From a virus (Duplodnaviria > Caudoviricetes), in IMG/VR virus record IMGVR_UViG_3300009684_000032, positions 95-64,094 of that record: a DNA stretch of 64,000 bases; one strand, given 5' to 3'. A program made the translations under genes and the position numbers. How positions within the stretch are numbered: position 1 is the stretch's first letter; each line of letters opens with the position of its first letter. Below, one piece after another: positions 5,415 to 64,000 of the stretch. The notes below the pieces were generated by a model, which saw nothing but the letters and a program-made list of their open reading frames with translations, did no database searches and was not told the DNA's origin.

Positions 5415-5445
5415 TATAGTCAACATAACAGATTATGACACGTTG

Positions 5446-5700: not shown

Positions 5701-5715
5701 TGTGATTGTCCTTTG

Positions 5716-30397: not shown

Positions 30398-32023
<1,626 letters not shown>

Positions 32024-45094: not shown

Positions 45095-45095
45095 A

Positions 45096-46852: not shown

Positions 46853-46870
46853 GAAAATATTTATACAAAT

Positions 46871-46899
46871 AAAAAAGCTGCCCGAAAGGCAGCTTTTTT
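46871..46899. terminator. Intrinsic terminator after the tail tube gene
   Basis: AAAAAAGCTGCC-cgaaa-GGCAGCTTTTTT. Confidence 0.9.
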
Positions 46900-46923
46900 A
46901 AATCTGTATTTTAGTAAAGTATA

Positions 46924-47520: not shown

Positions 47521-47591
47521 GGAATAAATCTCCTTCTTTGCATTAGTATTTATATCAACGACGTCTTTATAAAACTACAGGTGTGTTGAAG

Positions 47592-48179
47592 TTAAATATT
47601 ATGATTATACAGTACCACTGCTACCAGATGTATACGATCTTCTTTACTAGCATTTACAGCGGTATGCAATGGTAGTGTGTTTGTTTCCCACCATGTAGAT
47701 GCAGTCAAATGTTGTACTTCATTTTCAATTATCATAAAACAACCTTCTTGGGTTTTAATTGGATAATGTATACGTATATTAGCGTCTGTATGCCAACTCA
47801 GACAAGTTTTAGGTTTGGATTTCATAATGCGAACTCTGCCTAATTTATAACGTTTAGCAAGTTCATTATATACATGTTCAAATAACGTATGTTTAAATTG
47901 AGAACACATTGTAGAGAAATCAGATTCAGTATAAGGGGTGTCATATTTTTTGACTTCTATACGCTCATTACCAAACTGATCTATAATTTGTTTAGATGCA
48001 GACCAATCATGTGTTAAACTGCCGCAGCCTTTTAAAAAATCGTCGGGTGCATCTACTGTAGTATTAAGACAAATTTGATTGTCATTACTCCACTTAATTG
48101 CATTATTATGCAGCATTGAATTTAATTCACTATACAAATCGTAAATAGGCAAGCCTGTTAATTTACTAAAATTAGTCAC
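47592..48179 (-). CDS. 2OG-Fe(II) oxygenase (Asp/Asn beta-hydroxylase-like)
   Basis: GRVRIM..KPKTCLSWHTD...RIHYPI...HTAVN...RIHLV. Confidence 0.82.
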   Translation of the reverse strand: MTNFSKLTGLPIYDLYSELNSMLHNNAIKWSNDNQICLNTTVDAPDDFLKGCGSLTHDWSASKQIIDQFGNERIEVKKYDTPYTESDFSTMCSQFKHTLFEHVYNELAKRYKLGRVRIMKSKPKTCLSWHTDANIRIHYPIKTQEGCFMIIENEVQHLTASTWWETNTLPLHTAVNASKEDRIHLVAVVLYNHNI

Positions 48180-48678
48180 TTAAAATTATCTCCACTGCGT
48201 CGTTAATAGATATGTAATCACTTTCGGTAAATTGTGTATATTTTGCTAATATTTTAGGAGTTCCTACATATCCAAACCATTTGTATTTAACTTGAACAGC
48301 AGTTGTAATACGAGACAGATCGTCTGATAATGTACGCAATGCACGTTTATGCATGCTATATTCTAATAAATGCGAACGATTGTAATCTAGCACAATGTTA
48401 TTTTCTGCAATTCTGCTACCGACATTAATAATTACTTTATGCTGGTCTCTCCATGCATGCCACAATTCTAGACACATCTCAGACTGCCCGAAGCCTGCCG
48501 GCGCATTGTTAATAAACACGTCGCAGTTGTATACCTCTTGTATTATTTGTTTACGAATACTGCGTAGCGATATATCGTATCCAGTGGATTTGCTAAAACC
48601 AATGGCATTAGGCGATAGCTTATCATATAGCGCAGCGCCTATACCATAAGTGTGTCCTGTAATAGCATATGTTGTCAT
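48172..48678 (-). CDS. Short SDR-like NAD(P)-binding oxidoreductase
   Basis: YAITGHTYGIG, DVFINNA, IINVGS, YxxxK (YSMHK); start placed at MTTY. Confidence 0.82.
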   Translation of the reverse strand: MTTYAITGHTYGIGAALYDKLSPNAIGFSKSTGYDISLRSIRKQIIQEVYNCDVFINNAPAGFGQSEMCLELWHAWRDQHKVIINVGSRIAENNIVLDYNRSHLLEYSMHKRALRTLSDDLSRITTAVQVKYKWFGYVGTPKILAKYTQFTESDYISINDAVEIILSD

Positions 48679-48930
48679 GTTATAATCTACCAAATTTCAA
48701 TTGTTGATGCACCAATGTAGTGTTATTATGCAACTGACATACGGGCATCTCTGTCATAATTATCATTTTAAAATCCTTGTTATAGAACATAAAACATTAC
48801 ATATATTTGTAAGCAACGTGTTTATAACGTACTAACTTTTATAGTATACAGCGCAGAATTCATCGATGTCATTATTCAAATTACCGTCAACGCGACATAG
48901 TTTTAAACAGTACATATACTTGTTCATATA

Positions 48931-48959
48931 TTGACGTAGTTTCAAGTGGCACATATACT
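48931..48959 (+). promoter_or_regulatory. Sigma70-like promoter of the + strand biosynthetic operon
   Basis: TTGACG-N17-TATACT; degenerate duplicate 39 nt upstream. Confidence 0.75.
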
Positions 48960-48992
48960 TGTTTATATTGAAACATGTAAGGCAGACTTTTC

Positions 48993-50201
48993 ATGACATC
49001 AGACCTAAAAAAGAATTTAGATCCAATTGCACGAGTTCAGGCAAAATTACCAGGCATGAACGTGCCAATGACAGGTGTTCCTGAGAACGACAATATAACA
49101 CTTCTACCGGACCGTCCACCTATTTTTCATAATGTTCCAAATTATGATATTGAAAAGAATCCGTTTTCGTTTCTTTATTTAGATATGACATACAAGTGCA
49201 ATATGGAATGTGGATTTTGCGATACTCCTATCAGGCATTACAAAGACATGCCTATTGATATTTTTGAAGACTTGTGTCGAAGATTGCCACGCCCGGTAAA
49301 CATGCGATTTGTGGGTGCTGAACCGACCCTTTATAAAAATTTACACAAAGCAATTGAAATCGGTACAAAATATGGACATCAGCTTGCTATTGTTACCAAC
49401 GGAATACGTCTTTCAAATAAAAACTTTGTAAAAGATTTAAAAAATACCATTGATAACTGTGCAGACCCTAAATTAGTAAATTTATCGGTTTCCCTTAACG
49501 GTGGATTTGTGAGAGACGATTGGTACGAAACGATTGATCATGATATTAGTCACCGCAAGAAAAAGGTACAAGGACTTGAAAATCTCATTGAAGCCGGATT
49601 TAAACGTATTTGTATTAATGCAATCATTATTAAAAATTTAAATGAGGGTGTTGTACAAGAGTTCTATGACAAAGCTAATAGCTTGCCGCCGGGTGTTATC
49701 ACCAATATACGATTCCGGTGTGCTGCAAAGCAAGGGCGTTATGTAGAAGGATTGTATGAAAATGAAGATGATCACACATCTTATACCGGAGTTGAACTCA
49801 ACAACTACATTAAGACAATTATTCCAGAGGCAAATGATCCAATCAAATGGATTCGCGATGGTATAAACCCGTCAGACGGTGCAGGCAATCACTTGAACAA
49901 TCCAAAGTTGAAGTGCAATCAATGCTGCTTGATGTATTATATCAAACCTAAGCTATGGGTTGCAACTGTTGAATTTGGATCACACAATTCGGCATTATGC
50001 TGGAGACGTGGACAGTTCGTTACAAGTACGCAAACTATTCAACCTGCACACCACTACATAGATGAACTAAGCAGATATATTAACACCTATATACCAGATG
50101 GTATGAAAACATATTCAGAACATCAGCTTAAGAAAAAGATGTATGATGATTTTCAAGACAAAGGTATCAATCCACTTATATCAACTAACTGGCAAGAATA
50201 A
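48993..50201 (+). CDS. Radical SAM enzyme (MoaA/PqqE-like core)
   Basis: CNMECGFC, GAEPTL, VTNG; extra C-terminal Cys (CNQCC, LCWRRG). Confidence 0.88.
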   Translation: MTSDLKKNLDPIARVQAKLPGMNVPMTGVPENDNITLLPDRPPIFHNVPNYDIEKNPFSFLYLDMTYKCNMECGFCDTPIRHYKDMPIDIFEDLCRRLPRPVNMRFVGAEPTLYKNLHKAIEIGTKYGHQLAIVTNGIRLSNKNFVKDLKNTIDNCADPKLVNLSVSLNGGFVRDDWYETIDHDISHRKKKVQGLENLIEAGFKRICINAIIIKNLNEGVVQEFYDKANSLPPGVITNIRFRCAAKQGRYVEGLYENEDDHTSYTGVELNNYIKTIIPEANDPIKWIRDGINPSDGAGNHLNNPKLKCNQCCLMYYIKPKLWVATVEFGSHNSALCWRRGQFVTSTQTIQPAHHYIDELSRYINTYIPDGMKTYSEHQLKKKMYDDFQDKGINPLISTNWQE

Positions 50202-50202
50202 T

Positions 50203-50436
50203 ATGAAAATAATAGACGTGTATCATCTATCGAATGTCGGTGAATCATATTGGCAACATCTTAAATGGTGTGCATATTCTACCGTTATATTTTCTATAAT
50301 GCTGGTATTAGCAATAATACATGGAATTTTTCCATTCTTGTTGGCTGACATCCCAGATAAAGTTATGATAAATTATGTGAAAAATTTTAAATTACGTAGG
50401 GTAGTTACCGGACAGGAAGAAAGAAACCCAGAATAA
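50203..50436 (+). CDS. Small membrane protein (HL..VGESYWQH type)
   Basis: HLSNVGESYWQHL plus a hydrophobic helix and IHGIFPFL; start at MKII. Confidence 0.65.
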   Translation: MKIIDVYHLSNVGESYWQHLKWCAYSTVIFSIMLVLAIIHGIFPFLLADIPDKVMINYVKNFKLRRVVTGQEERNPE

Positions 50437-51554
50437 TGTTTTCAAAAGCATATATTCCATATAGAGGTTACTATACTTCGCCGTTTGTTAGATATGGAAA
50501 AAGTTTTAAAGATTATAACTCGATAGAGCTCAGTGCAACTACTACAAAAGAATGGATGGGTCATAATAAAATTGACCCATCCATTATTGATTTTGTGCTA
50601 TATGGAACGTCTGTGCATCAACACAGAGGATTTTGGGCAGGGCCATGGGCCGCTGCACTAATAGGCGCATCGCATACTACAGGGGCTATGTTAAGCCAAG
50701 CATGTACCACTGCTGCGACTGCTCTATATCAAGCTGCTGCAAATACTGAATTGGGGTTGTGCAGGACAACATACTGCCTAGTATCAGACAGAACCTCTAA
50801 TGGTCCTATCATAAATTGGCCGGAGTACGATATAACCGAAGATTGGGTGAATGATAATTTTGAATATGATCCGTGGGGCAAAACCTCCATGTTACAAACT
50901 GCTGAAAATGTTGTTACATTTAACAATATAAGCAGACAACAACTAGACGACGTAACAGCACATCGATACGCACAATATAACACTATTGTAGAAAAACCTT
51001 ACATGTTCAAAACTGCCGATGTTGTCAATGATCAGGGTGTAAAACAAGTAGATATTAAAAGACTCACACGATTAAAATCAATAAATCCAAATAGTGTTCA
51101 TACATTGGGCAATGTAACATATCCAGCCGACGGTCATTGCGGAATCATAGTAACAGACATTAATACTGCCATGTTGTTTAGCGATATAAAAATACAAATA
51201 TTGTCATATGGATATTCCAGGTGCGATACATCGTTTATGCCGTTAGCCTCTATAACTGCAACATCCATGGCATTAAAAAAAGCAAATCTTTCTATCAGAG
51301 ATATGACTGTTATCAATCAACATAATGCATTTGTAGTTAACGATATTGCATTTGCTAATTATTTTGGAAACGATGTTTACAATATGAATAACTATGGCAG
51401 TCCGTTAGTGTACGGACATCCACAAAGCCCTGTACTCGGCCGGCTTGCTATTGAAGGCATAGAAGAATGCATCAACAAAGGTGGCGGTTATGTATTAGTA
51501 ACTGGTGCAGCCGGCGGCGACACGGGAGCAGCATTAATATTGAAAGTAAATTAA
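50436..51554 (+). CDS. Thiolase-family acyltransferase with an atypical active site
   Basis: QACTTA nucleophile Cys, HNAF, GHPQSP; C-terminal TGAAGGD lacks the second Cys. Confidence 0.85.
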   Translation: MFSKAYIPYRGYYTSPFVRYGKSFKDYNSIELSATTTKEWMGHNKIDPSIIDFVLYGTSVHQHRGFWAGPWAAALIGASHTTGAMLSQACTTAATALYQAAANTELGLCRTTYCLVSDRTSNGPIINWPEYDITEDWVNDNFEYDPWGKTSMLQTAENVVTFNNISRQQLDDVTAHRYAQYNTIVEKPYMFKTADVVNDQGVKQVDIKRLTRLKSINPNSVHTLGNVTYPADGHCGIIVTDINTAMLFSDIKIQILSYGYSRCDTSFMPLASITATSMALKKANLSIRDMTVINQHNAFVVNDIAFANYFGNDVYNMNNYGSPLVYGHPQSPVLGRLAIEGIEECINKGGGYVLVTGAAGGDTGAALILKVN

Positions 51555-52168
51555 TGTCATTTGACGTACCATGGCCCAATTGGAAAGGACAAAAGTTTTT
51601 AGGAGAGATTGATTTATCAACTCCATCTCTTATAGATTATTTAGATTGTCCACAGGCAGAACCTTTAAAAGAAAACATTTTAAAAATCATAGAACGAAAC
51701 AACTGTAAAAACATAGTTGATGTGGGCTGCGGCGATGGTAAATTCACTGAACGTCTAATATTAGACAATTATTTGGGGTTTGATGCAGAGCATCGTATGA
51801 TAAAACGAGCGAACAGACGTTATAAGCATAGAACAAATTTCGAATTTAGACATTGTACATGGGACGACGACATAACAGTTGAGTTCGAGGTAGACTGCTT
51901 GATGTTTGTAGGCACGCTAAGTTATAATGTAAATCACATTGTTGGATTTGAAAAACTATGCAAACTCTATAATCCTAGAATAGTAATAATACAAGAAATT
52001 TTACAAGATCAAACATATATAGCAGAAACAAATAAGTTAAAAGCTATGCCATTAGACTATTATTTGAGTTATAAACACAATTACTATGAATTTGATTTAC
52101 CCGTTTGGTGCGGGCACAGGGCACAACTGGAGATTTTCTATAATGGCACAATTTACAAAACAAGTTAA
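51554..52168 (+). CDS. Class I SAM-dependent methyltransferase
   Basis: IVDVGCGDG, YLGFD; start at MSFDVP by TAATG coupling. Confidence 0.85.
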   Translation: MSFDVPWPNWKGQKFLGEIDLSTPSLIDYLDCPQAEPLKENILKIIERNNCKNIVDVGCGDGKFTERLILDNYLGFDAEHRMIKRANRRYKHRTNFEFRHCTWDDDITVEFEVDCLMFVGTLSYNVNHIVGFEKLCKLYNPRIVIIQEILQDQTYIAETNKLKAMPLDYYLSYKHNYYEFDLPVWCGHRAQLEIFYNGTIYKTS

Positions 52169-52922
52169 GGCACCAGTTTTACCTGAAGTCGCATCAGTTA
52201 TAAGCAGTATTAATTTAAATATACTGTCAAATGATACACCATATACCACTACAATTAAAGAGTGGCTTAAACCTGTCATAGATTTATCTGATTTTTGGGT
52301 TTACCCTATTAACGGAATATCAGAAGGTCTTAACTATTGGATGGGCAACGAAACAAGAGCAATATACAAAGATCTGGGTGATTACGAATGGGTAGACGGC
52401 GATTTTAGTAATGGTGCTATAAAATACGTATCGATACCCAGTTCTATAGATGGAAATTTTAGAGAAATCCCACAAGACATACCAGTTGCGTTAGATATTG
52501 CATATGTTGGCACAACTGCTATACAAAAGATAGACATAGGCAAAAATGTAGAAAAAGTATTTTTCAGTTTGAGTAAACCGTTTGGTCTTAAAAATGTAAG
52601 GACTGGCTGGTATTTTACTAGAAAAGTAGATGTTAAATTGCAACGACTGCATATCAAATCAAACTATTACAATTATTATGCACATACTATAGCCGAGTCA
52701 GTTATACAGTCGTTTCCAGTAGACTATGTATATAACAAATTTTGGAAACTACAAACAGAGGTATGTGCTGCACATATGCTAACCCCTAGTAATAGCGTGT
52801 GGCTTGCAACTTCAATTGATCACAAATACAAAGATTTTAGAAGAAATAACGGCAGGCTTTATGTAAAACACACCGAAAAAGCAAGACTATGCATTACGGA
52901 ATTTTTAAATGATCAATGTTAG
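52143..52922 (+). CDS. Truncated PLP-dependent (fold type I) aminotransferase-like enzyme
   Basis: NGISEG, PSSIDG, LDIAY, SLSKPFGL..VRTGW. Confidence 0.78.
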   Translation: MAQFTKQVKAPVLPEVASVISSINLNILSNDTPYTTTIKEWLKPVIDLSDFWVYPINGISEGLNYWMGNETRAIYKDLGDYEWVDGDFSNGAIKYVSIPSSIDGNFREIPQDIPVALDIAYVGTTAIQKIDIGKNVEKVFFSLSKPFGLKNVRTGWYFTRKVDVKLQRLHIKSNYYNYYAHTIAESVIQSFPVDYVYNKFWKLQTEVCAAHMLTPSNSVWLATSIDHKYKDFRRNNGRLYVKHTEKARLCITEFLNDQC

Positions 52923-53820
52923 AATCGCAGTGTTATTGTCTGGCAGTCCCAGATTTGTAAAAGAAGGATCAGAGTGGTGGCATATCAAATCAATGCCCAA
53001 AAATGCAACAATTGATTATTATGGGCATTCTTGGGACGCACACGATCATATTGGCAAAACTAGATACTATAATGCCGACAACAAAGTAATAAATTATGAA
53101 TATTTCAAATGCTGGAATTTTACAGACTTTTTATTAACACCGTATTCAGTTGATATACCAGAGTTTGAAACAATTAAAAATTCTAACAGCCCTATAGCTA
53201 ATTTCTTTCTATGGAACGATCGTCGGGATCATATATTAAGTGTTATAAAGGCAAACGAACTACTTGTTAAATCTAAAAAACAATATGACATAGTTATTGT
53301 GATGAGATATGACACTATAATTTATCAAGACAGTCTTGATAAAGCCATACCATTTATATTAGATTTTAAAAACAGCCATACATCAAAATTTCACAGAGGC
53401 TATGACAAAGCACTATACTGGAACGGTAACAATCCCACAATATTCACACCATGGGTACAAGTACGTCAGGGGTTGCCTGTAATGCAAGATTATATGTTTA
53501 TAAGCACATATAATGATTGGGCAACATATTCATATAATTTAAAAGAAAAATATCATAACCTATTGAATAAAGATATTAAAATATTAGAACCGCTGCATCA
53601 CGTAGTAACAGAGGCCACATACATACCACATGTTATGTGGGCATTCATTGGTCTGTATACTAATGCAAATTTCATACAACAAGACGATTTAAAAGTTTGC
53701 GTAATACGATCAGAAAAAAATAATATTGCAAACATGAATTATTTAGATTTAGAGTTAGAACACGATAATAATTTTAATGAGCTGTGCGAACAATATAAAA
53801 AAGAAGGTATTAAAAAATGA
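52909..53820 (+). CDS. Putative glycosyltransferase-like protein
   Basis: RIAVLLSGSPR, HSW, YDIVIVMRYD pattern seen in phage GT-like proteins. Confidence 0.5.
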   Translation: MINVRIAVLLSGSPRFVKEGSEWWHIKSMPKNATIDYYGHSWDAHDHIGKTRYYNADNKVINYEYFKCWNFTDFLLTPYSVDIPEFETIKNSNSPIANFFLWNDRRDHILSVIKANELLVKSKKQYDIVIVMRYDTIIYQDSLDKAIPFILDFKNSHTSKFHRGYDKALYWNGNNPTIFTPWVQVRQGLPVMQDYMFISTYNDWATYSYNLKEKYHNLLNKDIKILEPLHHVVTEATYIPHVMWAFIGLYTNANFIQQDDLKVCVIRSEKNNIANMNYLDLELEHDNNFNELCEQYKKEGIKK

Positions 53821-55232
53821 TGTATAATGCAGTAACAGATTTTATACGTCGCAATAATAAAATTGCCATATATTACAAAGATACAACAGTGTCATACGAC
53901 GAGTTGTATACAAACGTTTGCAGGTATGCAAATGCAATTAAGTTGCAATTTAATATTGGCGATAAAATACTTATTAATATGTCTGACAGACCTGAATACA
54001 TTTACATGTTTTGGGGTGCAGTTAAGTCTGGTATCGTTCCTGTACTAGTTAATACCATGCTAACAAAAAAAGAATATGATTCCATACACAATACTAGCAA
54101 TCCGGTTTACGAATTTAACGACACAAACATTGGCAAGTTTGATAGCGAAGCAACTGATTTAACAGATTTTGCTGCTGCAACTACTACCAAGGATGATATA
54201 TGTGTTATTATGTATTCGTCTGGTACCACAGGATACTTAAAAGAAATATCGCATAAACATAAAGACATTGCCGTAACATGCAAAAATTATGCGGCAAATA
54301 TATTAAACATATCAGACGATGATATTTTGTATAGTGCTGCAAAATTGTTTTTTGCATATGGATTTGGAAATAGCATGTCATTTCCATTTTATTTTGGTGC
54401 ATCTACTGTGTTAATTTCAGAGACGTCTAGTGCTAAGATTGTATTAGACACTATTGAAAAATACCGCCCAACTATATATTTTGGTGTACCATCTATATAT
54501 GCACAACAAATTAAATCAATAAAAGCAAATAGCTACGACACGTCGTCATTAAAGCTGTGTGTCTCAGCTGGAGAGCCGTTGCCTGGAAAACTACTAGATG
54601 AATGGATGCAACTTACCAATACTATAATACTTGACGGTATAGGTAGCACCGAAGCTCTTCATATTTTTATATCTAATACAAAAGATATGTTCGAACACAA
54701 TTGCTCCGGACAAATTGTTCCTGGCTATACTGCAAAAATACTAGATCCAATCACTAATATGCTAACAGTAGACGGCGACATAGGCGATCTATACATATTC
54801 GGAGATAGTATCAGTACTATTGGCATTGATTGGTTAAAAACTGGTGATATGTATATTAAACGAGGAGAGAAATATTACTATCAAGGCAGATCAAACGATA
54901 TGTTAAAAGTTGGTGGTGTTTGGGTGTCACCCGCTGAAATTGAAGCTAAAATTATAGAACACGATGGAGTGTTAGAAGCAGGTGTAGTTATAGGTACAAA
55001 TCTATCAGGATTATTAAAACCAAAAGCATTTGTTGTTTTGACAGATCCCAATAATGCCACAATAGCAACCAAGAATAGCATTAAACGAAAATGTATGAGT
55101 GAATTGCCAGCGAATCATTATCCGTATTGGGTAGACTTTGTTACAACCCTACCTAAAACTGCTACTGGAAAAATACGTAGACATATACTTAGAACCTATG
55201 ATGTTTTTAGCCCACCCAACTTAAATGATTGA
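53817..55232 (+). CDS. Benzoate-CoA-ligase-like acyl-CoA synthetase (ANL family)
   Basis: YSSGTTG, SAAKLFFAYGFGN, SAGEPLP, DGIGSTEALHIFISN, TGD, GRSNDMLKVGGVWVSPAEIE, PKTATGK. Confidence 0.92.
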   Translation: MMYNAVTDFIRRNNKIAIYYKDTTVSYDELYTNVCRYANAIKLQFNIGDKILINMSDRPEYIYMFWGAVKSGIVPVLVNTMLTKKEYDSIHNTSNPVYEFNDTNIGKFDSEATDLTDFAAATTTKDDICVIMYSSGTTGYLKEISHKHKDIAVTCKNYAANILNISDDDILYSAAKLFFAYGFGNSMSFPFYFGASTVLISETSSAKIVLDTIEKYRPTIYFGVPSIYAQQIKSIKANSYDTSSLKLCVSAGEPLPGKLLDEWMQLTNTIILDGIGSTEALHIFISNTKDMFEHNCSGQIVPGYTAKILDPITNMLTVDGDIGDLYIFGDSISTIGIDWLKTGDMYIKRGEKYYYQGRSNDMLKVGGVWVSPAEIEAKIIEHDGVLEAGVVIGTNLSGLLKPKAFVVLTDPNNATIATKNSIKRKCMSELPANHYPYWVDFVTTLPKTATGKIRRHILRTYDVFSPPNLND

Positions 55233-56382: not shown

Positions 56383-56435
56383 ACTATATGTATTCTATCT
56401 AACTTGTGGCCAGTAATAGCATATCTAAGTGTCAT
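56379..56435 (-). pseudogene. 18-codon deletion scar fusing an SDR N-terminus to a 2OG-oxygenase C-terminus
   Basis: MTLRYAITGH+KLDRIHIV* versus MTTYAITGH (SDR at 48678) and KEDRIHLV (oxygenase ending at 47592). Confidence 0.55.
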
Positions 56436-56436
56436 A

Positions 56437-57072: not shown

Positions 57073-58196
57073 ATTGACCTGCTTTTAGGTATTTTACTAT
57101 CGGCAGAACTAACACATGCATTGGATATGCATGGCATTGGTCTGTCAAACAGTTTAAAACCAGTTTCTATATAACCCAACGGTTTATCACTACAGCTATA
57201 GCTGCGTTTAATAGCACCATCCGGTTCCCGTATTATAATACTTCTATAACCGCTTTCGCAATTCCACCCTTTAAATTGATTAAAATTAAAAGCATTAAAT
57301 CGTTCTGCTTGATCCATATACCATTTTTTGCCAGTATTATCTTCAAACTCTACTTGCATAATTTGCGGAACCGTGGCATCATCCCCGTTAGTTATGCTCA
57401 TCATTTGCATACCAACGTTCGGCTTAGGACGAGTTACAATACTTTTTACAGAGGTAAAATCACGCTGCGGCATACCGTTGTGCAGCACCGACAATTGCGC
57501 AGTAGTATACCCTTCTACTATACGGCTAGCAGTAGGGTCGCTTTGAGGCTTCAATGTTACATTTATACCCCTACTCAAGAAATATTCTGCTTCTTCGTAT
57601 AGTGTATCAAACCACTCAGGAACCATCACTGTATTAACAGTTACTTGCACAGCATTCTCTTGCAAGTATACCAGCTTGTCTGCAAACTTTTCAGTGTGTC
57701 CTTTAAGATCGCCTTGCTTGATACCTTGCTCACGATGCCAACTAGCAGTTACACTTACCCTATGTAAATCACGTGTTACATTTACATATTTTTCAAACCA
57801 AAGTAGATTTTGACTAATATTGCTAGTCATATGAACACTTTGATAATTGCAATTCGCAGTATCTGCACTGTAATGTTCTAATAATCTAAGATAATCAGGA
57901 TAAACTGTTGGTTCGCCGCCACTAAAACTAAAGTGAAAACTGTTGAAATTGCGTTCGCGGCTTTGACGCTTAATCTCATCTACGGTTAACACATTTAGTT
58001 CATATGGTCTATAATCTTTAGTATCGCTACGAGCATACGGCCAACAGTAACTACATTTGTAGTTGCAAAAACGTCCAAGTAACCAGCTTACACAGAATAT
58101 ATCTCTATACAACAGTGTACGTTGACCGAAGCGTGTTATATCATCAAATGGTATTTTTGTGAAGTCGTATTGACTCCATTCTATTTTATTATCCAT
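57069..58196 (-). CDS. Radical SAM enzyme with C-terminal SPASM/twitch-like Cys
   Basis: CNYKCSYC, SGGEPT, TSN; CESG...SC...PC...C. Confidence 0.9.
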   Translation of the reverse strand: MDNKIEWSQYDFTKIPFDDITRFGQRTLLYRDIFCVSWLLGRFCNYKCSYCWPYARSDTKDYRPYELNVLTVDEIKRQSRERNFNSFHFSFSGGEPTVYPDYLRLLEHYSADTANCNYQSVHMTSNISQNLLWFEKYVNVTRDLHRVSVTASWHREQGIKQGDLKGHTEKFADKLVYLQENAVQVTVNTVMVPEWFDTLYEEAEYFLSRGINVTLKPQSDPTASRIVEGYTTAQLSVLHNGMPQRDFTSVKSIVTRPKPNVGMQMMSITNGDDATVPQIMQVEFEDNTGKKWYMDQAERFNAFNFNQFKGWNCESGYRSIIIREPDGAIKRSYSCSDKPLGYIETGFKLFDRPMPCISNACVSSADSKIPKSRSI

Positions 58197-58219
58197 AAAA
58201 CCAACTAACTAGTGAAAAT

Positions 58220-58936
58220 TTATAACTTTCCAAATGCATATAACCGTTCTAGACAAAAATAGCATGTACCACAATGTGCAGGGTCTGTATACTGTGCTTG
58301 CATATCATTTTCGCAAGACCAAGTATACGGATACAACTCGTCTAATACATTATAATCGTTATATATGCCATACACAACTCTTTTATCGTGTTCTGCAAAT
58401 GGCAAATACAGTGCAGTATTGCCTATATTAGAAATAGTAGGCGCAGTAGCGACATCGCGAGATATATCGCGTGTTTCTAAAGATTTTAAACATGCAATTT
58501 TGTCTACATCGTCTGACATAGCTGCTATCATTTGCATCATGTCATATTCAGGACAGTTGACCGACATACCTGCATATCTTGCGTCAATCTCAAGTTCATC
58601 AAACACAACAGCTTCTAAATCTTCTTGCCCTTTGGTATATTCATAGGAATTGATATCCCATGCATTTTGTGCATTATGACTGTCGTGGAATAGTGTATAG
58701 TGTTGAGTAGCCATCCTGCCCGTTAACCTGTTTACTATACGAATAACATCTTGTGCTTTACATATTGCATGCGGCCGCAATGGGCTAGCCATAGTATATG
58801 GATATATGTTAACAGATGCATCGTTTTTATAAAATTCACATATAGCATGATATATAATTGCACTATCCGGACCACCAGATAGTCTTACTGCTATATTGCG
58901 ATGATGACGGTCGAGTGGTATTACAGTATCTATCAC
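58220..58936 (-). CDS. QueC-like PP-loop ATPase (second paralogue)
   Basis: SGGPDSA; TWSC...HCGTCYFCLER. Confidence 0.8.
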   Translation of the reverse strand: MIDTVIPLDRHHRNIAVRLSGGPDSAIIYHAICEFYKNDASVNIYPYTMASPLRPHAICKAQDVIRIVNRLTGRMATQHYTLFHDSHNAQNAWDINSYEYTKGQEDLEAVVFDELEIDARYAGMSVNCPEYDMMQMIAAMSDDVDKIACLKSLETRDISRDVATAPTISNIGNTALYLPFAEHDKRVVYGIYNDYNVLDELYPYTWSCENDMQAQYTDPAHCGTCYFCLERLYAFGKL

Positions 58937-60441
58937 AACTCTGTCCTATAATCTTTATCTGTTAGCACATTATCGTAGCGACGTAATTCTTTATCAATCA
59001 TCCATCCAGAATTTGTTTTATTATTCAGCTGTTGAATAAGTTCATTTATTTCTTTAAAACGTCTTGCACGTACTGCGAGTGTATTGCCTTTATAATCCCA
59101 TTCGAATGCATTTTTAAAATTGGTTATGTCGTCTTTTACAAGATCCCACAACAAATGATCGTCTGACAACATTAATGTATTACCAAAACTTAAATATAAT
59201 AATGTGTCACCGTTTTTGTTTGTTGCATCTGCATAACCCAAATTATACAATCGCCGTATAGTGTTTAACGTATGCTGATGGTCATCTTCAGTTTCAGTAG
59301 GGTAACCTACTATCATTAATAATGTATGTTTAATCTGGTACTTGCGCAGCATATCAAAACACCACCACATATCGTCGTCTGTGAATTTTTTACCCATGTG
59401 ATATCTCACATGTTGGCTAAAAGACTCAATGCCTATATCAAGCTCTGCACAACCACTATCTGCCATTAACTGATAATCTGTCTCCGGCGATTGTGATTTA
59501 GATCTAACTATCCATTGACTCGCCCATTGGAAATTATTATCAGTTTTATGATAGTCTGCCAGTTCTGTTAATAATGATCTAAAAGATTTCATACTGCCGT
59601 TTATTAAACTGTCTGTAAATTTAAAGAATTGACGATTATATTGTTGTCTAACTGCAATAATTTCGTCTGCTATATGACGACCTGATCTAAATCTATATTC
59701 AGGCCACAGTTGATATACATTACAGAATGTGCAGCGTTTTACACAGCCTCTGCTACCAGTTATATAAACAGGATTGGTATAATCTATAGTCTTATATTCA
59801 TCCCATTTGATATCATCGTAATTTGGAAGCATTACTGTGTTTAAATCGAGAACTTGATTTGGATTCAACGAATCTATACCGTTAGATGTCAAGTTACCTT
59901 TTAACAATTCAACTATACTAAATTCACCGTCGCCGGAAATATAATGATCAAGTATACCTATGTCTTTAAATTTCTGTATACCATTTGCTATTTGAGCACC
60001 TCCCCATACAATTTTAGTATTAGGTAAATGTTCTCTTATTAATATACTGAGTTGTATTGCAACAGAATTACTGTACATAGATAAAATACTTAAACCTATC
60101 CACGTTGGATTTCGAATCTTAAAGTCTTCTATCCATTCCATGAATATATGACGATTTTCTTCATAAAAATCTATAAAATCTTGACTAAAATAAATCAGAT
60201 TTCGTTCTACATCTAGATCATTATGATGTGTACTAAAAAGACTGTCGTGCTCAAAAAAATAATAATCATGTTTGTTGATAGATTTTAAGCTATTATACAA
60301 TCTAATATTTAGATCCATCACTTCGCAACTAAAACCTGCATACATTAAATGCGATTTCAATACAGCTGGTCCAACAGTGGGAGCATCAGGGTTTATTTTA
60401 GGTATTATACAAATAATAATATCTGTCATTGCTACATCCAT
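58933..60441 (-). CDS. Cobalamin-binding radical SAM enzyme (paralogue of 5716-7179)
   Basis: IIPKINPDAPTVGPAVLKSH, SRGCVKRCTFC, IVGYPTETE. Confidence 0.9.
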   Translation of the reverse strand: MDVAMTDIIICIIPKINPDAPTVGPAVLKSHLMYAGFSCEVMDLNIRLYNSLKSINKHDYYFFEHDSLFSTHHNDLDVERNLIYFSQDFIDFYEENRHIFMEWIEDFKIRNPTWIGLSILSMYSNSVAIQLSILIREHLPNTKIVWGGAQIANGIQKFKDIGILDHYISGDGEFSIVELLKGNLTSNGIDSLNPNQVLDLNTVMLPNYDDIKWDEYKTIDYTNPVYITGSRGCVKRCTFCNVYQLWPEYRFRSGRHIADEIIAVRQQYNRQFFKFTDSLINGSMKSFRSLLTELADYHKTDNNFQWASQWIVRSKSQSPETDYQLMADSGCAELDIGIESFSQHVRYHMGKKFTDDDMWWCFDMLRKYQIKHTLLMIVGYPTETEDDHQHTLNTIRRLYNLGYADATNKNGDTLLYLSFGNTLMLSDDHLLWDLVKDDITNFKNAFEWDYKGNTLAVRARRFKEINELIQQLNNKTNSGWMIDKELRRYDNVLTDKDYRTEL

Positions 60442-61151
60442 TATACAATCCCACGAGGCGTTATGAGCAACTGCTCTACCGTACCTTCAAAATTAATATG
60501 CATACCCATTTTCCATGCACCTACAAGTTTACCAGTGCAATGTAAATTGTTGGCATTGAACAATATCATATTGCCGGGTTTGAATTCGTATGCAGTACCT
60601 GTTAACCCTTTAAAGTGACTGGGTTTATGCTGTGGATAAGCGAGGTATTTGCCGTAAAATTCCGGATCTATGTCGTAGTCGGTTTTATCATATACTCTGG
60701 GATCGTTATAGGGTGTTAAATTGGTTTTTTTGTTAAAATCGAAATCGTAATTGGCAATGGTATCTACTCTGTCACCATACCATGTTTGTCCAAATCCGTT
60801 ATCTACCCATTGATCAAATACCACAAAATGCTGCGGAGCAACAGGTTCGTGTAGATATATTGGCAACAAACAGTTTATCAATTGATACGGCTCGCCAGAA
60901 TCAACATGTGTTGTATAAAGATTGGAATGTTTGTATATATTGCCACCCTGTCCTTTATTAGTAACAAAGTACTTTGAAAAAATAGGATTTAACACATCTC
61001 CCAAATGTGTCCACGGCGAATTGATCTTTATCACATCAGGGTTGTTGGGTTTGCGCACATATAATGAATTATGCGTATCAAAGAAATTCTTAATATACTC
61101 GCACACATCCAATGGTATTGCATCTTCAACTACCATATGTCGTAATGTCAT
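60441..61151 (-). CDS. 2OG-Fe(II) oxygenase-like protein
   Basis: THVDS...LLPI...GNMILFN..NLHCT. Confidence 0.65.
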   Translation of the reverse strand: MTLRHMVVEDAIPLDVCEYIKNFFDTHNSLYVRKPNNPDVIKINSPWTHLGDVLNPIFSKYFVTNKGQGGNIYKHSNLYTTHVDSGEPYQLINCLLPIYLHEPVAPQHFVVFDQWVDNGFGQTWYGDRVDTIANYDFDFNKKTNLTPYNDPRVYDKTDYDIDPEFYGKYLAYPQHKPSHFKGLTGTAYEFKPGNMILFNANNLHCTGKLVGAWKMGMHINFEGTVEQLLITPRGIV

Positions 61152-61172
61152 GTTATGCTCCTGTATACAGTG

Positions 61173-62315
61173 TTAATTAGCTAGAGATGTTAAAAATTTA
61201 TGCAACGCAGGATTATAATCTTCTAATCGTGTGTTGTAAAATTCGTCTAGCTGTTTAGTATAGTATACAAAATCTTGCCAATGTTTAGCATTATATTCGT
61301 TGACTTTTAAGAAATTAGTTACGAGTGTATGTGCCCATTGATTACCAGCATTACATTCTAAAATCCAGTCCACATACGCAGCAGGTGCATATAACAGTGA
61401 CAAGCTATAAGGGTATCTTACAAAGTCAACACTCATATGATATCCGTTGTCTACCACAAGAGTATTAACTGTGGATGCAAAATCATTGGCTGTCAACAAC
61501 GACACTACAGTGTGAAAGGATGTTATAACATTATCAAATATTTCACTGTAGAGTTTGGTATTGGCAAATATTTCCAAATACGAGCTACCGTACCGTTGAT
61601 AATCATTGGCTTTACTATAGCTGTCAAGGCTTACATGAATGTCCAGAGTTTGAAACTTATTGAGTTTATGTATAAGTTCCTGCGATGGTACAACTGTGCC
61701 ATTTGTAGCAATTTCAATTGTAATTTTAGACGGATCTGCTCTGTCTATTAGATAGTCTATGAATTTTACAAAGTTGGGAGTCATAAATGGTTCACCTCCC
61801 AATACCTTAACCAATTCCAAATCTGTCAAGTCTGTATTATCGTATTTTCTAAAATTAGGTTCTAGTTTTTTATGAACTGGTTCTCCTAGAAATCTATCTC
61901 TATTAACAAGCTTGGTACTGAATTTGCTATCACACATTTTGCATTGTAGATTACAAATATTGTCTATAGACATTTCTATATAACGTAATTTGTCAAATTG
62001 ATCAGTGCAGTTTGCTTGCTGTATATTTGGAAATCTACTATTGATATATGTACGCAACGAACTGGCATTGTTGGCACCCTCTTGATCATAACATTTTGTG
62101 CAGCCGGGTGATTTAATACCGGCTAGCATATTTGAACGTAGCATAGTTAAGCTGGCAGTATTCATTACTGCAATACCCTGTGCTTCAAGATCATCTAATG
62201 CGATGTCAATACGTGTGTCATCTTTGGTATTTTGAAATCTGCAACAGGGTTTCAAACTGTTATCTGGTCGGACACACTGATGTATCCAAGGCAATACACA
62301 CCATGTGTCTGTCAT
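61173..62315 (-). CDS. Radical SAM enzyme with an N-terminal twitch/SPASM-like domain
   Basis: WCVLPW, PCC, GCTKCY, NICNLQCKMC, GGEPF, TNGT; start moved to MTDTWC. Confidence 0.88.
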   Translation of the reverse strand: MTDTWCVLPWIHQCVRPDNSLKPCCRFQNTKDDTRIDIALDDLEAQGIAVMNTASLTMLRSNMLAGIKSPGCTKCYDQEGANNASSLRTYINSRFPNIQQANCTDQFDKLRYIEMSIDNICNLQCKMCDSKFSTKLVNRDRFLGEPVHKKLEPNFRKYDNTDLTDLELVKVLGGEPFMTPNFVKFIDYLIDRADPSKITIEIATNGTVVPSQELIHKLNKFQTLDIHVSLDSYSKANDYQRYGSSYLEIFANTKLYSEIFDNVITSFHTVVSLLTANDFASTVNTLVVDNGYHMSVDFVRYPYSLSLLYAPAAYVDWILECNAGNQWAHTLVTNFLKVNEYNAKHWQDFVYYTKQLDEFYNTRLEDYNPALHKFLTSLAN

Positions 62316-62317
62316 TG

Positions 62318-63445
62318 TTAACTTATCCCACGGTCTACATCTATAGAACCGAACCCAATGATAGATTGTTTGTATTCTGTAGATACTGATGGTAACTCGT
62401 TGCTCTGTAAGAACCACGATGAACTATGCCATCTTGCAGTATCAAATACCATCATAGTGTTACATCTCCATTCGTAAACACTATGTACATTCAAACATGC
62501 ATATTCCTTACAGTACTGAGTATTTACAGGATTATAACGTAACACCTCGTCATCATACCACCAGTCCCGTATATCATCCGGTCTGTACTTAAACACTTCG
62601 TCGTTATCCATATATCGCATTTCACCTTTGCGATAAATCAGCTTACGTGGTACATCGCTTACACAGTCATAGTTAACAGTATATGGTTGCTTGCATGTCC
62701 ATTCCAACGGTATAATGACACCTATTACAATATGACAATCATGAGTAATAAAATTGTTGTCTACTACTCGCCAAGTATTGGGCAATGACACATAGTCGGT
62801 ATGCAATCCTGCAGGTTCACCCGATTTGAAATATTCAAAATTCCAATCCATTTTTATGTTAAGATAGTTATTAACATATGCAGACAAGTATGTCTTGGTG
62901 TCAGCAGGCACGGACACAAACTTATTATGTCCCAACGATCCACTTATTTTAACATTTGCAGATTCCAGTGCTGACGTAGCATCCACACGATATTTAAGTA
63001 TGTCTAAATCTATATTATTACTGCCATACTGTATCACATTGTTTTTTAATGCCACACACTGTTTGACTTCATCTAATTTAAAAAAGTTCAAATTCTTAAC
63101 AGCCTGTTTAATAACAGATGCATGAATGGTATGACGTATATTACGTGCAATTAATATACCAGAATGAGAAAGAAACTGTTTAACATGTTTATACAATGCA
63201 TGCCAATCAACAGGTTCTTCTGTTACACCAATAGTAATGATATCATACTTTTTATGACTAGACATTTTTACAGCGTCGGGTGCATAAACTTCTCTATATG
63301 ACCACTCTGGGAACTGTTGCTTTACAGTATCTATCAGCTGACAGTCAGCTTCTCCTATTTCTAACAACGACCCATGCTGACCAAACTGCGTCATTTGATC
63401 AACTATTAACTGCATTTCCTCTGGAAATATCCAACCTTTTGTCAT
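62318..63445 (-). CDS. Fusion of a degenerate methyltransferase-like domain and a 2OG-oxygenase-like domain
   Basis: LLEIG...YDII...GILI at the N-terminus; LHTD...IIPL...MVFD..RWHSS at the C-terminus. Confidence 0.6.
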   Translation of the reverse strand: MTKGWIFPEEMQLIVDQMTQFGQHGSLLEIGEADCQLIDTVKQQFPEWSYREVYAPDAVKMSSHKKYDIITIGVTEEPVDWHALYKHVKQFLSHSGILIARNIRHTIHASVIKQAVKNLNFFKLDEVKQCVALKNNVIQYGSNNIDLDILKYRVDATSALESANVKISGSLGHNKFVSVPADTKTYLSAYVNNYLNIKMDWNFEYFKSGEPAGLHTDYVSLPNTWRVVDNNFITHDCHIVIGVIIPLEWTCKQPYTVNYDCVSDVPRKLIYRKGEMRYMDNDEVFKYRPDDIRDWWYDDEVLRYNPVNTQYCKEYACLNVHSVYEWRCNTMMVFDTARWHSSSWFLQSNELPSVSTEYKQSIIGFGSIDVDRGIS

Positions 63446-64000
63446 CTTCGTTCTACTTTTTCAATCTCATTTAAACCCAAATCTGTTCCACGAGCATCAA
63501 ATACCCCTTCTATTAAAAAGCGCAGTGGTGTGCGTATCCCATATTGTACAGGATTATCTGTAGAATTTCTTAATAATCCAACATGTATACTATTGCCTTC
63601 TTCTAACCCAAAGTCTTTACACACTTTACTGTATAAGTCGCTATAATTGTTCCACCAGTAGTCTGGACCAAAATGACGCATCATCTCAGTACCTATCCAC
63701 ATATCACTTACATTACAATATTCAAAGTCATTCATTATGGCAATGGGACCATTAACACGCTCACGACTATAGCGTATACCTATACGTTGACTACCCATAC
63801 CAAATGCTTTGCTAAGACTAACACTAACACTGGCTATAGCAGGATGTGTTACATCTAATTCAAAGTTCCTGCATTGTCCAAACCATGCACCGTCTATATG
63901 TACGGGTATTTTACGATGCTGGCAGTGATCCAATAACAGATCAAAATCGTCTACATATCCAGTGGTAATGCAACTAGGATAACTTGCCACAACCACGTCA
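63442..64000 (-). CDS. PLP-dependent aminotransferase-like enzyme (5' end outside the window)
   Basis: IDGAW, SLSKAFGMGSQRIG; paralogous pattern to 52143-52922. Confidence 0.75.
   Translation of the reverse strand, partial: DVVVASYPSCITTGYVDDFDLLLDHCQHRKIPVHIDGAWFGQCRNFELDVTHPAIASVSVSLSKAFGMGSQRIGIRYSRERVNGPIAIMNDFEYCNVSDMWIGTEMMRHFGPDYWWNNYSDLYSKVCKDFGLEEGNSIHVGLLRNSTDNPVQYGIRTPLRFLIEGVFDARGTDLGLNEIEKVERR

Follow-up and report, generated by a model that had tools for sequence, protein, structure and literature searches.

An island rich in radical-SAM enzyme genes, flanked by tail sheath and tail tube, in an uncultured giant phage from freshwater

We analysed a 64,000-nt stretch of DNA, referred to here as the window, which corresponds to bases 95–64094 of a single 64,094-bp viral contig (IMG/VR record IMGVR_UViG_3300009684_000032), with position 64000 being the contig end. 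The contig lacks a terminal repeat and has a CheckV completeness of ~12%; its source is an uncultured freshwater giant phage with T4-type myovirus genes at 1–47520, nearly all on the minus strand (PHROGs annotation). Above the tail tube gene, at 47592–64000, lies the subject of this report, an accessory biosynthetic island rich in radical S-adenosylmethionine (SAM) enzymes. This part of the window contains 19 open reading frames (ORFs) encoding 97–502 amino acids (aa), the last of which is open at the window end, and falls into three blocks: a minus-strand gene pair immediately upstream of the tube gene (47592–48693), a seven-gene plus-strand operon (48993–55232) and a ten-gene minus-strand operon (55221–64000). 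Gene spacing inside each operon ranges from −100 to +54 nt, most neighbours overlapping or abutting, and the GC content is 0.353 against 0.417 in the phage core. A first-pass annotation, made from the sequence alone, had described about 18 consecutive, mostly coupled genes, AT-richer than the core and running past the window edge, a description that this layout and the sequence beyond the edge bear out.

The missing end of the island is supplied by locus L001, an 11,076-bp IMG/VR contig that is 99.8% identical to window positions 58538–64000 (11 differences in 5,463 bases) and reaches 5.6 kb further. In L001, the truncated end ORF is completed (5207–6172) as a 321-aa protein of pyridoxal phosphate (PLP) type, beyond which lie genes for a 386-aa N-twitch radical SAM enzyme, a 303-aa radical SAM enzyme and a 468-aa SPASM/twitch radical SAM enzyme, and then the tail sheath gene (Phage_sheath_1C, E = 2e-15). 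Since L001 runs on to the sheath gene, the full island measures ~20.2 kb and holds 22 genes, 7 of them for radical SAM enzymes, spanning the gap between sheath and tube. This T4-type position had been proposed from the tube gene below the island, with gp18 to be looked for in the adjoining sequence, and the sheath gene does lie just beyond the island. The same arrangement is found in G003, a 518,643-bp IMG/VR genome with direct terminal repeats that is rated 100% complete (the record of locus L017): after its sheath gene comes the same series of island genes, with 50–88% amino-acid identity and the order from the sheath to the PP-loop genes whole. The sheath and tube genes of G003 are ~25.7 kb apart, a plus-strand operon again adjoins the tube, and the island is again AT-richer than the core.

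Taken downward from the sheath side, the minus-strand operon enters the window with the 3′ part of the 321-aa PLP aminotransferase-like gene (63442–64000), which the contig end truncates. Its family (alignment A3) is characterized by an invariant Lys and Asp, and 15 of 15 of its PDB profile matches were fold-type-I aminotransferases or 1-aminocyclopropane-1-carboxylate (ACC) synthases (best E = 2e-3); with its 278-aa paralogue in the plus-strand operon, it accounts for the two PLP enzymes seen in the first pass. The next gene, at 62318–63445, encodes a 375-aa protein that profile and motif evidence present as a fusion of an N-terminal SAM methyltransferase and a C-terminal Fe/2-oxoglutarate (2OG)-oxygenase-like domain. 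Its N-terminal 135 residues match L017:7496–8050, itself a Methyltransf_23 match (E = 1e-6), and its C-terminal domain (alignment A5) has an invariant HxD...H and aligned in hhalign to the family of the 236-aa oxygenase described below with 46% probability.

All four radical SAM genes counted in the window (48993–50201 on the plus strand; 57069–58196, 58933–60441 and 61173–62417 on the minus strand) are PF04055-positive, the overall range given for the four being E = 3e-14 to 4e-16 and the value listed for the 57069–58196 gene 4.6e-13. The enzyme at 61173–62417 (414 aa as listed) belongs, on profile score, to the N-terminal-twitch family N_Twi_rSAM (NF033640; 239.1 bits against a cut-off of 170, model positions 2–397), and its alignment (A1) displays conserved N-terminal Cys columns together with CxxxCxxC. 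Its true start is probably the ATG at 62315, giving 380 aa; homologues measure ~380 aa and cover it from about residue 35, the listed ORF overlaps the upstream gene by 100 nt, and this ATG falls just downstream of that gene's stop codon (62318–62320). The gene at 58933–60441 encodes a 502-aa radical SAM protein, putatively B12-binding and of methyltransferase type (Radical_SAM, E = 3.8e-16, 60 bits). Its B12-binding score of 23.7 bits lies below the cut-off of 32.1, which a relative in L002 passes with 40.3 bits; its best NCBIfam matches are PhpK at 102 bits (cut-off 600) and a RiPP (peptide made by the ribosome and modified after translation) C-methyltransferase at 87.6 bits (cut-off 282). 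The 375-aa enzyme at 57069–58196, the most conserved gene of the cluster family and therefore termed here the signature enzyme, is predicted to have a SPASM/twitch-type radical-SAM core (model of moderate quality, pLDDT 64). Against the viperin model NF038283 (cut-off 180), this enzyme and that at 48993–50201 score 40 and 39 bits, which places both outside the viperin family.

Between the N-twitch and B12 genes lies a 236-aa protein (60441–61151) for which an AF2 model was obtained (pLDDT 77.8, pTM 0.80). Its top Foldseek matches were EvdO2, WelO5, SnoN and HygX (E ~1e-4, TM 0.42–0.48), with EctD also found, and the listed PDB matches at E ≤ 1e-3 were Fe/2OG oxygenases or JmjC/asparaginyl-hydroxylase-type relatives. 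With the triad H82-x-D84...H204 invariant in its alignment (A4), the predicted fold and iron ligands are those of an Fe(II)/2OG oxygenase. PDB sequence-profile searches with A4 and with the fusion's C-terminal domain (A5) returned nothing significant, hhalign of A4 with A6, the alignment of the tube-proximal hydroxylase, was weak (14% probability), and in the ESM Atlas the 236-aa protein, like the 303-aa protein at 52909–53820, fell in unnamed clusters that are 96–100% viral.

Two QueC-like genes had been noted and were recovered as PP-loop proteins. The 211-aa product of 56437–57072, a putative ATP pyrophosphatase, gave weak QueC, Asn_synthase and PP-loop matches in its N-terminal part, and the 238-aa product of 58220–58936 gave a QueC C-terminal match (E = 2e-4) below the cut-off; they are paralogues with 28% identity, and SGGxDS and four C-terminal Cys are invariant in their alignment (A9). 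PDB profile matches of the family include NcsA/TtuA, ThiI, NAD synthetase, Cap9 and LarE. Against the QueC equivalog model, the two score 18.7 and 17.5 bits, respectively (cut-off 150), so that by sequence they are QueC-like in architecture only and lie outside QueC itself. The operon ends with a 179-aa protein (55843–56382), without a family match and with homologues in 3 loci, and a 211-aa protein (55221–55856) that is possibly a cupin or 2OG oxygenase; the latter matched no family, has one homologue, in L025, and shows an HxD...H read by eye.

The blocks nearer the tube are different in character. Directly upstream of the tube gene, on the minus strand, 47592–48179 encodes a 195-aa member of the Asp/Asn β-hydroxylase family of Fe/2OG oxygenases (PF05118, Asp_Arg_Hydrox, E = 1.1e-9), in which HxD...H is invariant across an eight-sequence alignment (A6). 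Of the four 2OG-like genes proposed earlier, this one stands on its Pfam match, 60441–61151 on fold and motif and 62318–63445 on its invariant C-terminal motif; that at 55221–55856 keeps only the motif seen by eye. The neighbouring 173-aa protein (48172–48693, minus strand) fits its earlier label of short-chain dehydrogenase/reductase (SDR) by a glycine-rich N-terminal motif and S...YxxxK, both invariant in alignment A7; the protein itself has no direct Pfam match, and a homologue matches adh_short weakly (E = 1.7e-3). Two side observations touch this region: a contig (depth 5.8) from one metagenome run (X3) joins position 48175 to 58143 with one extra letter and may represent a population variant without the variable middle, and three runs share loose contig ends at 47822 and 48709.

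The plus-strand operon opens with a 402-aa radical SAM enzyme (48993–50201; PF04055, E = 3e-14), whose best NCBIfam matches, MoaA, TrsS and viperin, are all far below cut-offs. It is followed by a small membrane protein (50143–50436; DUF6356, PF19883, E = 6.4e-9) of 97 aa as listed, the start of which may be internal, with one hydrophobic stretch at about residues 43–66, in agreement with its first reading as a membrane protein. A 372-aa thiolase-like protein follows (50436–51554). The earlier thiolase label holds at the level of its Pfam domains (Thiolase_N and Thiolase_C) and not for the catalytic apparatus: aligned to 4c2j, it keeps the nucleophilic Cys and the His, the second, C-terminal acid/base Cys is replaced by Ala, and it scores 120.5 bits against TIGR01930, below the cut-off of 240.55. 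By sequence it is a member of the thiolase fold family rather than a canonical thiolase.

The remaining genes of the operon encode a 233-aa class I SAM methyltransferase (51467–52168; Methyltransf_25 and Methyltransf_31, E ~1e-7), which with the fusion's N-terminal half makes two methyltransferase domains where one had been noticed; the short 278-aa PLP aminotransferase-like paralogue (52086–52922), with the invariant Lys and Asp of A3 and 46% identity to a gene of the G003 variable operon; a 303-aa protein (52909–53820) whose sole family match is phrog_13607 (E = 1.9e-6); and a 471-aa aryl/acyl-coenzyme A (CoA) ligase (53817–55232; AMP-binding, E = 1e-55, and AMP-binding_C). The ligase, already recognized as such in the first pass, scores 392.1 bits against TIGR02262 (cut-off 375.25), which assigns it by sequence to the benzoate-CoA ligase family, an assignment that does not imply a substrate. 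The labels of glycosyltransferase (GT)-like for 52909–53820 and GNAT-like for 55843–56382 found no GT or GNAT family match in Pfam, PHROGs or NCBIfam. The CoA ligase is absent from G003, and viral contigs hold weak partial relatives of it only. In place of this set, the variable operon of G003 encodes a fatty-acid-desaturase-like membrane protein, a nucleoside diphosphate (NDP)-sugar epimerase/dehydratase (Epimerase, E = 1e-31), a UDPG_MGDP_dh family protein (E = 2e-16), the PLP paralogue, an Asp/Asn-hydroxylase-like protein, a redoxin and a GNAT protein.

A pattern scan of IMG/VR with the N-twitch enzyme alignment returned 157 stretches, from which 78 loci, including L001, were kept. The other 77 have a median length of 20.9 kb with flanks limited to 10 kb, and the per-gene counts among them (relatives with at least 40% identity) are therefore lower bounds. 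Radical-SAM-family ORFs number 9 per locus in the median (range 1–13). The 468-aa twitch enzyme has relatives in at least 52 of the 77 loci, the 375-aa signature enzyme in at least 36, the 321-aa PLP protein in at least 22, the 303-aa radical SAM enzyme in at least 16, the methyltransferase–oxygenase fusion in at least 13, the 414-aa twitch enzyme in at least 10, the 236-aa oxygenase in at least 8 and the B12 enzyme in at least 4. Gene order is kept in the closer loci: PLP, 2OG domain and N-twitch radical SAM follow one another in 10 of 77, and 2OG, N-twitch and 236-aa oxygenase in 8. The neighbourhood comparison across phages that the first-pass annotation had suggested thus reveals a recurring module, partly in the same order. 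On the other hand, the radical SAM, thiolase-like, methyltransferase, 303-aa and CoA-ligase genes of the plus strand have relatives in none of the 77 loci, the radical SAM gene at 48993–50201 included, and on this comparison the plus-strand operon is strain-specific.

Related loci additionally carry carbamoyltransferase (NodU/CmcH-type), nitroreductase-like, GDSL-like and methyltransferase genes. The 66-kb contig G001 consists almost wholly of one co-directional cluster with Radical_SAM matches in 18 of 55 scanned ORFs; its other genes include those for a carbamoyltransferase, a class I/II aminotransferase of full length, a sodium:solute symporter and a protein with an ATE_C-like domain (the C-terminus of Arg-tRNA-protein transferase). 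Radical_SAM matches in G003 total 22, of which 19 exceed the cut-off; they are spread over the sheath–tube island (5), 87–102 kb (10), 144–152 kb (4) and other places (3), the two distant groups (L151 and L152) being arrays of N-twitch paralogues. Seven N-twitch paralogues stand back to back in these arrays, with a B12 radical SAM gene and a 300-aa-type gene, and there is also a tandem N-twitch trio with 40–46% identity to the same reference protein. In two further loci, L027 and L038, N-twitch radical SAM genes lie within ~10 kb of relatives (50–74% identity) of this phage's TerL, gp32 or UvsX; the genome position of the cluster is therefore not fixed between lineages.

The signature enzyme has 4833 relatives at E ≤ 1e-3 among 90%-identity clusters, drawn from freshwater and marine metagenomes. 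The best 120 of these 4833 all share at least 63% identity, lie on contigs of up to 576 kb, come in part from Tara samples and are named, among the best listed, only "organic radical activating enzyme" or "hypothetical protein". Clustering at 50% identity leaves only 56 clusters with E ≤ 1e-30, so that by sequence the family appears narrow but abundant. Among the 50,697 deposited phage records, none matched the signature enzyme; the B12 enzyme matched among cultured phages only Streptomyces phage SF3 (27% identity over 38% of the query), and the N-twitch enzyme matched among deposited phages only RsoM2USA (22%) and a marine single-virus fragment. A scan of representative bacterial and archaeal genomes, which was built on two peptide patterns and can miss relatives, found 52 loci, only two of which carry the cluster. 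One of these, L095, is an 18-kb contig of a Verrucomicrobiales metagenome-assembled genome (MAG) in which 18 of 18 ORFs are 84–100% identical to those of IMG/VR contig L039 (17 of 18 at 96–100%), and most likely represents viral DNA assigned by mistake to a bacterial MAG. The other, L096, is a 101-kb contig of a Bdellovibrionales MAG with at least 10 cluster-family genes (N-twitch, C-twitch, 375-aa type, carbamoyltransferase) at 30–65% identity in mixed orientation; it could be either a large phage or a bacterial copy proper. The remaining matches were distant single genes (20–33% identity) that gave no functional lead. By these comparisons, the minus-strand module belongs to a widespread radical-SAM cluster family carried almost only by viral contigs.

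The island is phage DNA under purifying selection. Four freshwater metagenome runs from four studies contain at least 75% of the sampled words of the window, and contigs bridge the junction of tube gene and island in 3 of the 4 at even depth; a 25,191-bp contig from one run (37 differing letters) covers 44500–64000 unbroken and extends beyond, and that run may stand near the sample from which the window came. Compared with G003, dN/dS is 0.04–0.13 in six genes of the conserved module, 0.28–0.38 in two divergent genes and 0.03–0.07 in core structural genes, with synonymous sites saturated and figures restricted to pairs with a computable dS (5 further pairs excluded). Between the window and L001, 8 of the 11 differences are synonymous. 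The layout of the complete sister genome, the junction-bridging contigs and the low dN/dS therefore establish phage DNA rather than misassembly. Neutral evolution and misassembled host DNA had been named beforehand among the outcomes fatal to the idea of a functional phage island, and dN/dS, G003, L001 and the bridging contigs exclude both. For host DNA joined wrongly to the phage contig, the lower GC alone speaks; with the same island between sheath and tube in a genome closed by terminal repeats, a separate IMG/VR record tying it to the sheath gene, unbroken assembly across the junction and only 2 of 52 cellular loci carrying the cluster, one of them near-identical to a viral contig, the chance of such an artefact is negligible.

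Component searches for peptide, DNA-modification and glycan systems gave mostly negative results. None of 217 island ORFs of 20–110 aa was both conserved with G003 and located outside the large genes, and the short ORFs in the 300-bp divergent gap were all unconserved. Pfam and NCBIfam, the two collections to which the following family statements refer, matched no RiPP recognition element (RRE), leader peptidase/protease or exporter family, remote RRE domains being easily missed; the precursor beside its maturases that characterizes RiPP clusters was not found in the island. Nor was any nonribosomal peptide synthetase, polyketide synthase, transporter or base-exchange (tRNA-guanine transglycosylase, TGT) family matched, as the first-pass annotation had stated. 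In other loci, we observed a strongly conserved ORF of 74 aa, in which Trp, Tyr, His and Asn are abundant, at or near the cluster head in 29 cases (e.g., L016:1570–1794 and L036:2176–2400); in most of these it lies directly upstream of a C-terminal-twitch radical SAM gene and resembles a precursor–maturase pair. Neither the window nor L001 or G003 contains this ORF (best tblastn E = 0.03), and the C-twitch family is likewise absent from the window lineage.

TGT/DpdA gave 0 matches in the complete G003, with the control positive in 14 of 14 genomes, and the set known from phage 7-deazaguanine DNA modification (DpdA/TGT with FolE, QueD, QueE and QueC) is thus incomplete there; the FolE, PTPS/QueD-like and ThyA-like genes that G003 does encode lie 70–110 kb or more from the island. 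No NDP-sugar-modifying enzyme was matched in the window, and G003 has its Epimerase and UDPG_MGDP_dh genes in the variable operon. Four GT2 matches in G003 all lie outside the island. The family A10, GT2-like and located at the head of clusters elsewhere, was considered and dropped: its Pfam GT2 match has E = 0.058 only, with no PDB profile match, and hhalign gave a probability of 0.1% for kinship with 52909–53820, to which it is unrelated.

The remainder of the window is a T4-type core. PHROGs identified in 1–47520 a large terminase, a gp32-like single-strand DNA-binding protein, UvsX, GroEL, a DnaB helicase, a primase, a head closure protein and two tail-tube-like genes. The nearest cultured relatives by terminase are the jumbo phages Phosso (51.5% identity) and Atu_ph07 (48.6%) and PA5oct-like phages (47.7%). 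The GroEL-type chaperonin gene (30398–32020, minus strand; phrog_5725, E = 8e-173) lies within the replication/recombination block. The lower boundary of the island is formed by the 198-aa tail tube gene (46924–47520, minus strand; phrog_4542, E = 1.3e-50; 89% identity to the G003 tube gene), which stands in tandem with a 426-aa tube-like gene (45572–46852, minus strand). The T4 late promoter motif TATAAATA occurs a few bases upstream of each (46858–46865 and 47547–47554), and a strong bidirectional hairpin lies between them (46870–46900). The motif is not enriched in the window (5 observed against 7.1 expected, 2 of the 5 just upstream of the tube genes), and generic promoter and terminator scans were likewise at chance (85 against 85.9 and 9 against 8.1 expected, respectively). 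No tRNA gene was found in the window. A second B12-binding radical-SAM gene, of 487 aa, lies outside the island at 5716–7179 (minus strand), with 53% identity to the 58933–60441 gene, 65% to a G001 gene and no PHROG match.

We favour the reading that the island encodes one coordinated phage tailoring pathway acting on a small, possibly nucleotide-linked (nucleoside-like or nucleotide-sugar-like) substrate, and give it a probability of roughly 0.35. The conserved minus-strand module, taken downward from the sheath, comprises three N-twitch radical SAM enzymes, two related MoaA/viperin/BlsE-like ones and one resembling a B12 radical-SAM C-methylase, along with two QueC-like PP-loop proteins, one aminotransferase-like PLP protein, two or three Fe/2OG oxygenases and a methyltransferase domain. 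Together they might perform a fixed series of radical C–H functionalisations, C-methylation, hydroxylation, transamination and ATP-dependent amidation, to which the variable plus-strand operon (aryl-CoA ligase, thiolase-like protein, methyltransferase, second PLP enzyme and a further radical SAM enzyme) may add a strain-specific acyl or aryl decoration. The product could be destined for the virion surface, DNA or the host envelope, or could be a free metabolite. A single pathway is suggested because gene order is conserved, the genes are apparently translationally coupled and purifying selection is uniform. A small substrate is suggested because of the accessory enzymes, namely the PLP aminotransferase-like, aryl-CoA ligase, thiolase-like and SDR-like proteins here, the carbamoyltransferase, nitroreductase-like and GDSL-like proteins of related loci, the aminotransferase and symporter of G001 and the nucleotide-sugar enzymes of the sister genome; because the fold neighbours of the 236-aa oxygenase (EvdO2, HygX, SnoN, WelO5 and EctD) are small-molecule tailoring oxygenases; and because the search for a precursor-like ORF came back empty. 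The lean towards a nucleotide, which is weak, comes from MoaA, viperin and BlsE as the nearest NCBIfam, PDB-profile and Foldseek neighbours of the radical SAM enzymes. The first-pass annotation had proposed a pathway that decorates a macromolecule. Its coherent, selected and phage-borne enzyme island stands, and the decoration is unsupported, no attaching transferase having been identified; the data fit a free metabolite just as well. The annotation had also warned that sequence does not reveal the product, and that warning stands.

Several points weigh against a small-molecule pathway. VIA-align on the radical-SAM model gave BlsE a Z of 12.5 and TigE, PqqE, SkfB, ChlB, NifB, MoaA and viperin 10.7–11.7; BlsE is thus tied with peptide-modifying enzymes, and the nucleotide lean therefore fails with a second aligner. 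All radical-SAM family matches except N_Twi_rSAM are far below curated cut-offs. No scaffold-forming or attaching enzyme (glycosyltransferase, nucleotidyltransferase or cyclase) was recognized in the window, the location of all four sister GT2 matches outside the island counts in the same direction, and G001 has no nucleotide-sugar enzyme at E ≤ 1e-3. Radical SAM enzymes are so abundant (22 in G003; 18 of 55 ORFs in G001) that a polymer with many sites is the better fit, and we know of no single small-molecule pathway that needs so many. SPASM/twitch radical SAM enzymes, Asp/Asn β-hydroxylases and B12 radical-SAM C-methylases are, moreover, also typical of peptide modification.

The main alternative is that the enzymes modify phage proteins after translation, for example tail or virion proteins, in the manner of proteusin/RiPP tailoring. 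Radical SAM enzymes would then introduce epimerisations, crosslinks and C-methylations, 2OG enzymes would hydroxylate Asp/Asn, methyltransferases would act on N or O, and PP-loop proteins would amidate carboxylates. We consider this unlikely, and still a serious rival, given how many radical-SAM paralogues there are, where the island sits among the tail genes and the SPASM/twitch character of its enzymes. Sheath and tube enclose the island in the window lineage and in G003 alike, it includes an Asp/Asn β-hydroxylase family member, its B12 enzyme recalls the RiPP C-methyltransferase model (at a sub-threshold score), its radical-SAM fold ties with TigE, PqqE, SkfB, ChlB, anSME and EpeE, and many paralogues would suit many target sites; elsewhere in the family, G001 has its ATE_C-like domain and 29 loci the 74-aa ORF near C-twitch genes. 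That ORF and the C-twitch family are missing from the window lineage, however, and neither a conserved free-standing small ORF nor a match to an RRE, leader peptidase or exporter family was found. Protein modification would also be an unusual setting for aminotransferase-like, CoA-ligase, thiolase-like, SDR, carbamoyltransferase and nucleotide-sugar enzymes, and the tail-gene position is lost in L027 and L038, where the cluster stands beside TerL, gp32 or UvsX. Hypermodification of phage DNA or of the deoxynucleoside triphosphate pool to evade host restriction, comparable to the thymidine and 7-deazaguanine pathways, is a poorer fit and seems improbable. Seven to 22 radical SAM enzymes far exceed any DNA modification pathway known to us, no kinase, pyrophosphorylase or DNA-binding family was matched in the island, the QueC-like proteins score 17.5–18.7 bits against a cut-off of 150, and G003 lacks TGT/DpdA and keeps FolE, PTPS and ThyA far from the island. 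What speaks for it is the presence of QueC-like proteins, nucleotide-acting enzymes (MoaA, viperin, BlsE) among the radical-SAM neighbours, the FolE, PTPS/QueD-like and ThyA-like genes of G003, and the reported occurrence of radical SAM and PLP enzymes in published thymidine clusters too (PMC5889632, PMC8989533).

Two further possibilities were considered. The pathway might remodel lipids or the host envelope (lipopolysaccharide, capsule or membrane lipid), with radical SAM and B12 enzymes acting on lipid or glycan chains. The acyl/aryl-CoA ligase, thiolase-like enzyme and small membrane protein of the window would suit this role, as would the desaturase-like membrane protein and nucleotide-sugar enzymes of the G003 operon, the GDSL-like proteins of related loci and weak NCBIfam matches to Tes, the ladderane B12 enzyme, HpnJ and HpnR. 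Those lipid-enzyme matches are all far below cut-offs, though, no flippase, glycosyltransferase or lipid-carrier enzyme was matched in the island, and no membrane protein was seen in the conserved core, which makes the idea quite improbable. More improbable again is a hyperplastic region in which auxiliary genes without mutual relation have gathered, each working by itself on host metabolism or on Fe–S/SAM turnover. The AT-richness in both genomes, the swapping of the tube-side half between sister genomes and the X3 contig that may lack the middle would be expected of such a region, and the 12 radical-SAM genes of a T4-like marine genome were treated under Fe–S metabolism in the accessible part of one study (PMC5332604). 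Set against this, the minus-strand gene order is conserved across many contigs, overlapping and abutting genes suggest translational coupling, the module is made of orthologous groups rather than random sets, and purifying selection is strong and uniform.

The island is a phage accessory biosynthetic island with a real chance of categorically new chemistry. Radical-SAM enzymes catalyse some of biology's hardest reactions, and, to our knowledge, conserved operons of at least seven are rare even among bacteria; the operon appears to be a virus-borne invention. It is possible, if doubtful, that the island is the share of this phage in a radical-SAM mega-pathway that is all but confined to virus contigs, with a product of a chemical class new to viruses, such as a heavily C-methylated, hydroxylated and amidated nucleoside- or aminoglycoside-like metabolite serving as weapon or shield in infection, or a dense radical modification of virion proteins. 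If true, this would be a new kind of phage biology, neither a variant of DNA hypermodification nor host-like auxiliary metabolism. The product would show what purpose is served by ~4% of a ~520-kb genome (~20 kb of 518,643 bp) in very large aquatic phages. The island may also be a source of new enzyme chemistry, and its conserved core with a variable operon offers a ready-made strain comparison.

Among known systems, proteusin/polytheonamide RiPP sets combine B12 radical-SAM C-methylases, further radical SAM enzymes, Fe/2OG hydroxylases and SAM methyltransferases, the same mix as in the island. The island differs in that no precursor peptide, leader-binding domain or protease was found in it, and in its additional PLP, CoA-ligase, thiolase-like and PP-loop enzymes. 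The hyperplastic regions of T4-like cyanophages and the glycan clusters of giant viruses are likewise AT-rich accessory islands in or beside the structural block, with 2OG oxygenases, carbamoyltransferases and sugar enzymes, and vary between close relatives. What sets the present family apart from them is the dominance of radical SAM enzymes (7 here; a median of 9 per related locus), for which we know of no counterpart in such accessory regions, and a signature enzyme that no cultured phage on record carries. Sugar and nucleoside antibiotic tailoring (BlsE, BtrN, AprD4, DesII, HygX, EvdO2 and TobZ-type carbamoyltransferases) resembles the island in that BlsE was the best VIA match, with DesII, BtrN and AprD4 also listed, EvdO2 and HygX were Foldseek matches of the 236-aa oxygenase, and related loci carry NodU/CmcH-type carbamoyltransferases. 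It differs in that the island has no scaffold synthase or glycosyltransferase, the matches are at fold level only (TM 0.3–0.5, identity 10–19%), and peptide enzymes tie with BlsE.

Thymidine hypermodification clusters act on 5-hydroxymethyl-dU (5-hydroxymethyldeoxyuridine) in DNA through kinases and pyrophosphorylases, with one radical SAM enzyme. The island has seven, no such kinase or transferase family was matched in it, and its sister genome lacks TGT. These clusters are similar in being multi-enzyme phage islands that are reported to combine radical SAM and PLP enzymes to build an exotic group (PMC5889632, PMC8989533). The literature we searched holds no description of the present cluster beyond a passing count of radical-SAM genes by Nishimura et al. 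2017 (PMC5332604), who reported 12 in a T4-like marine environmental viral genome and treated them with Fe–S cluster assembly. The accessible text of that study gives the gene count only and proposes no gene order, pathway or product. That genome too comes from an uncultured, T4-like phage of aquatic origin; with its dozen radical-SAM genes, it probably represents the same cluster family (PMC5332604).

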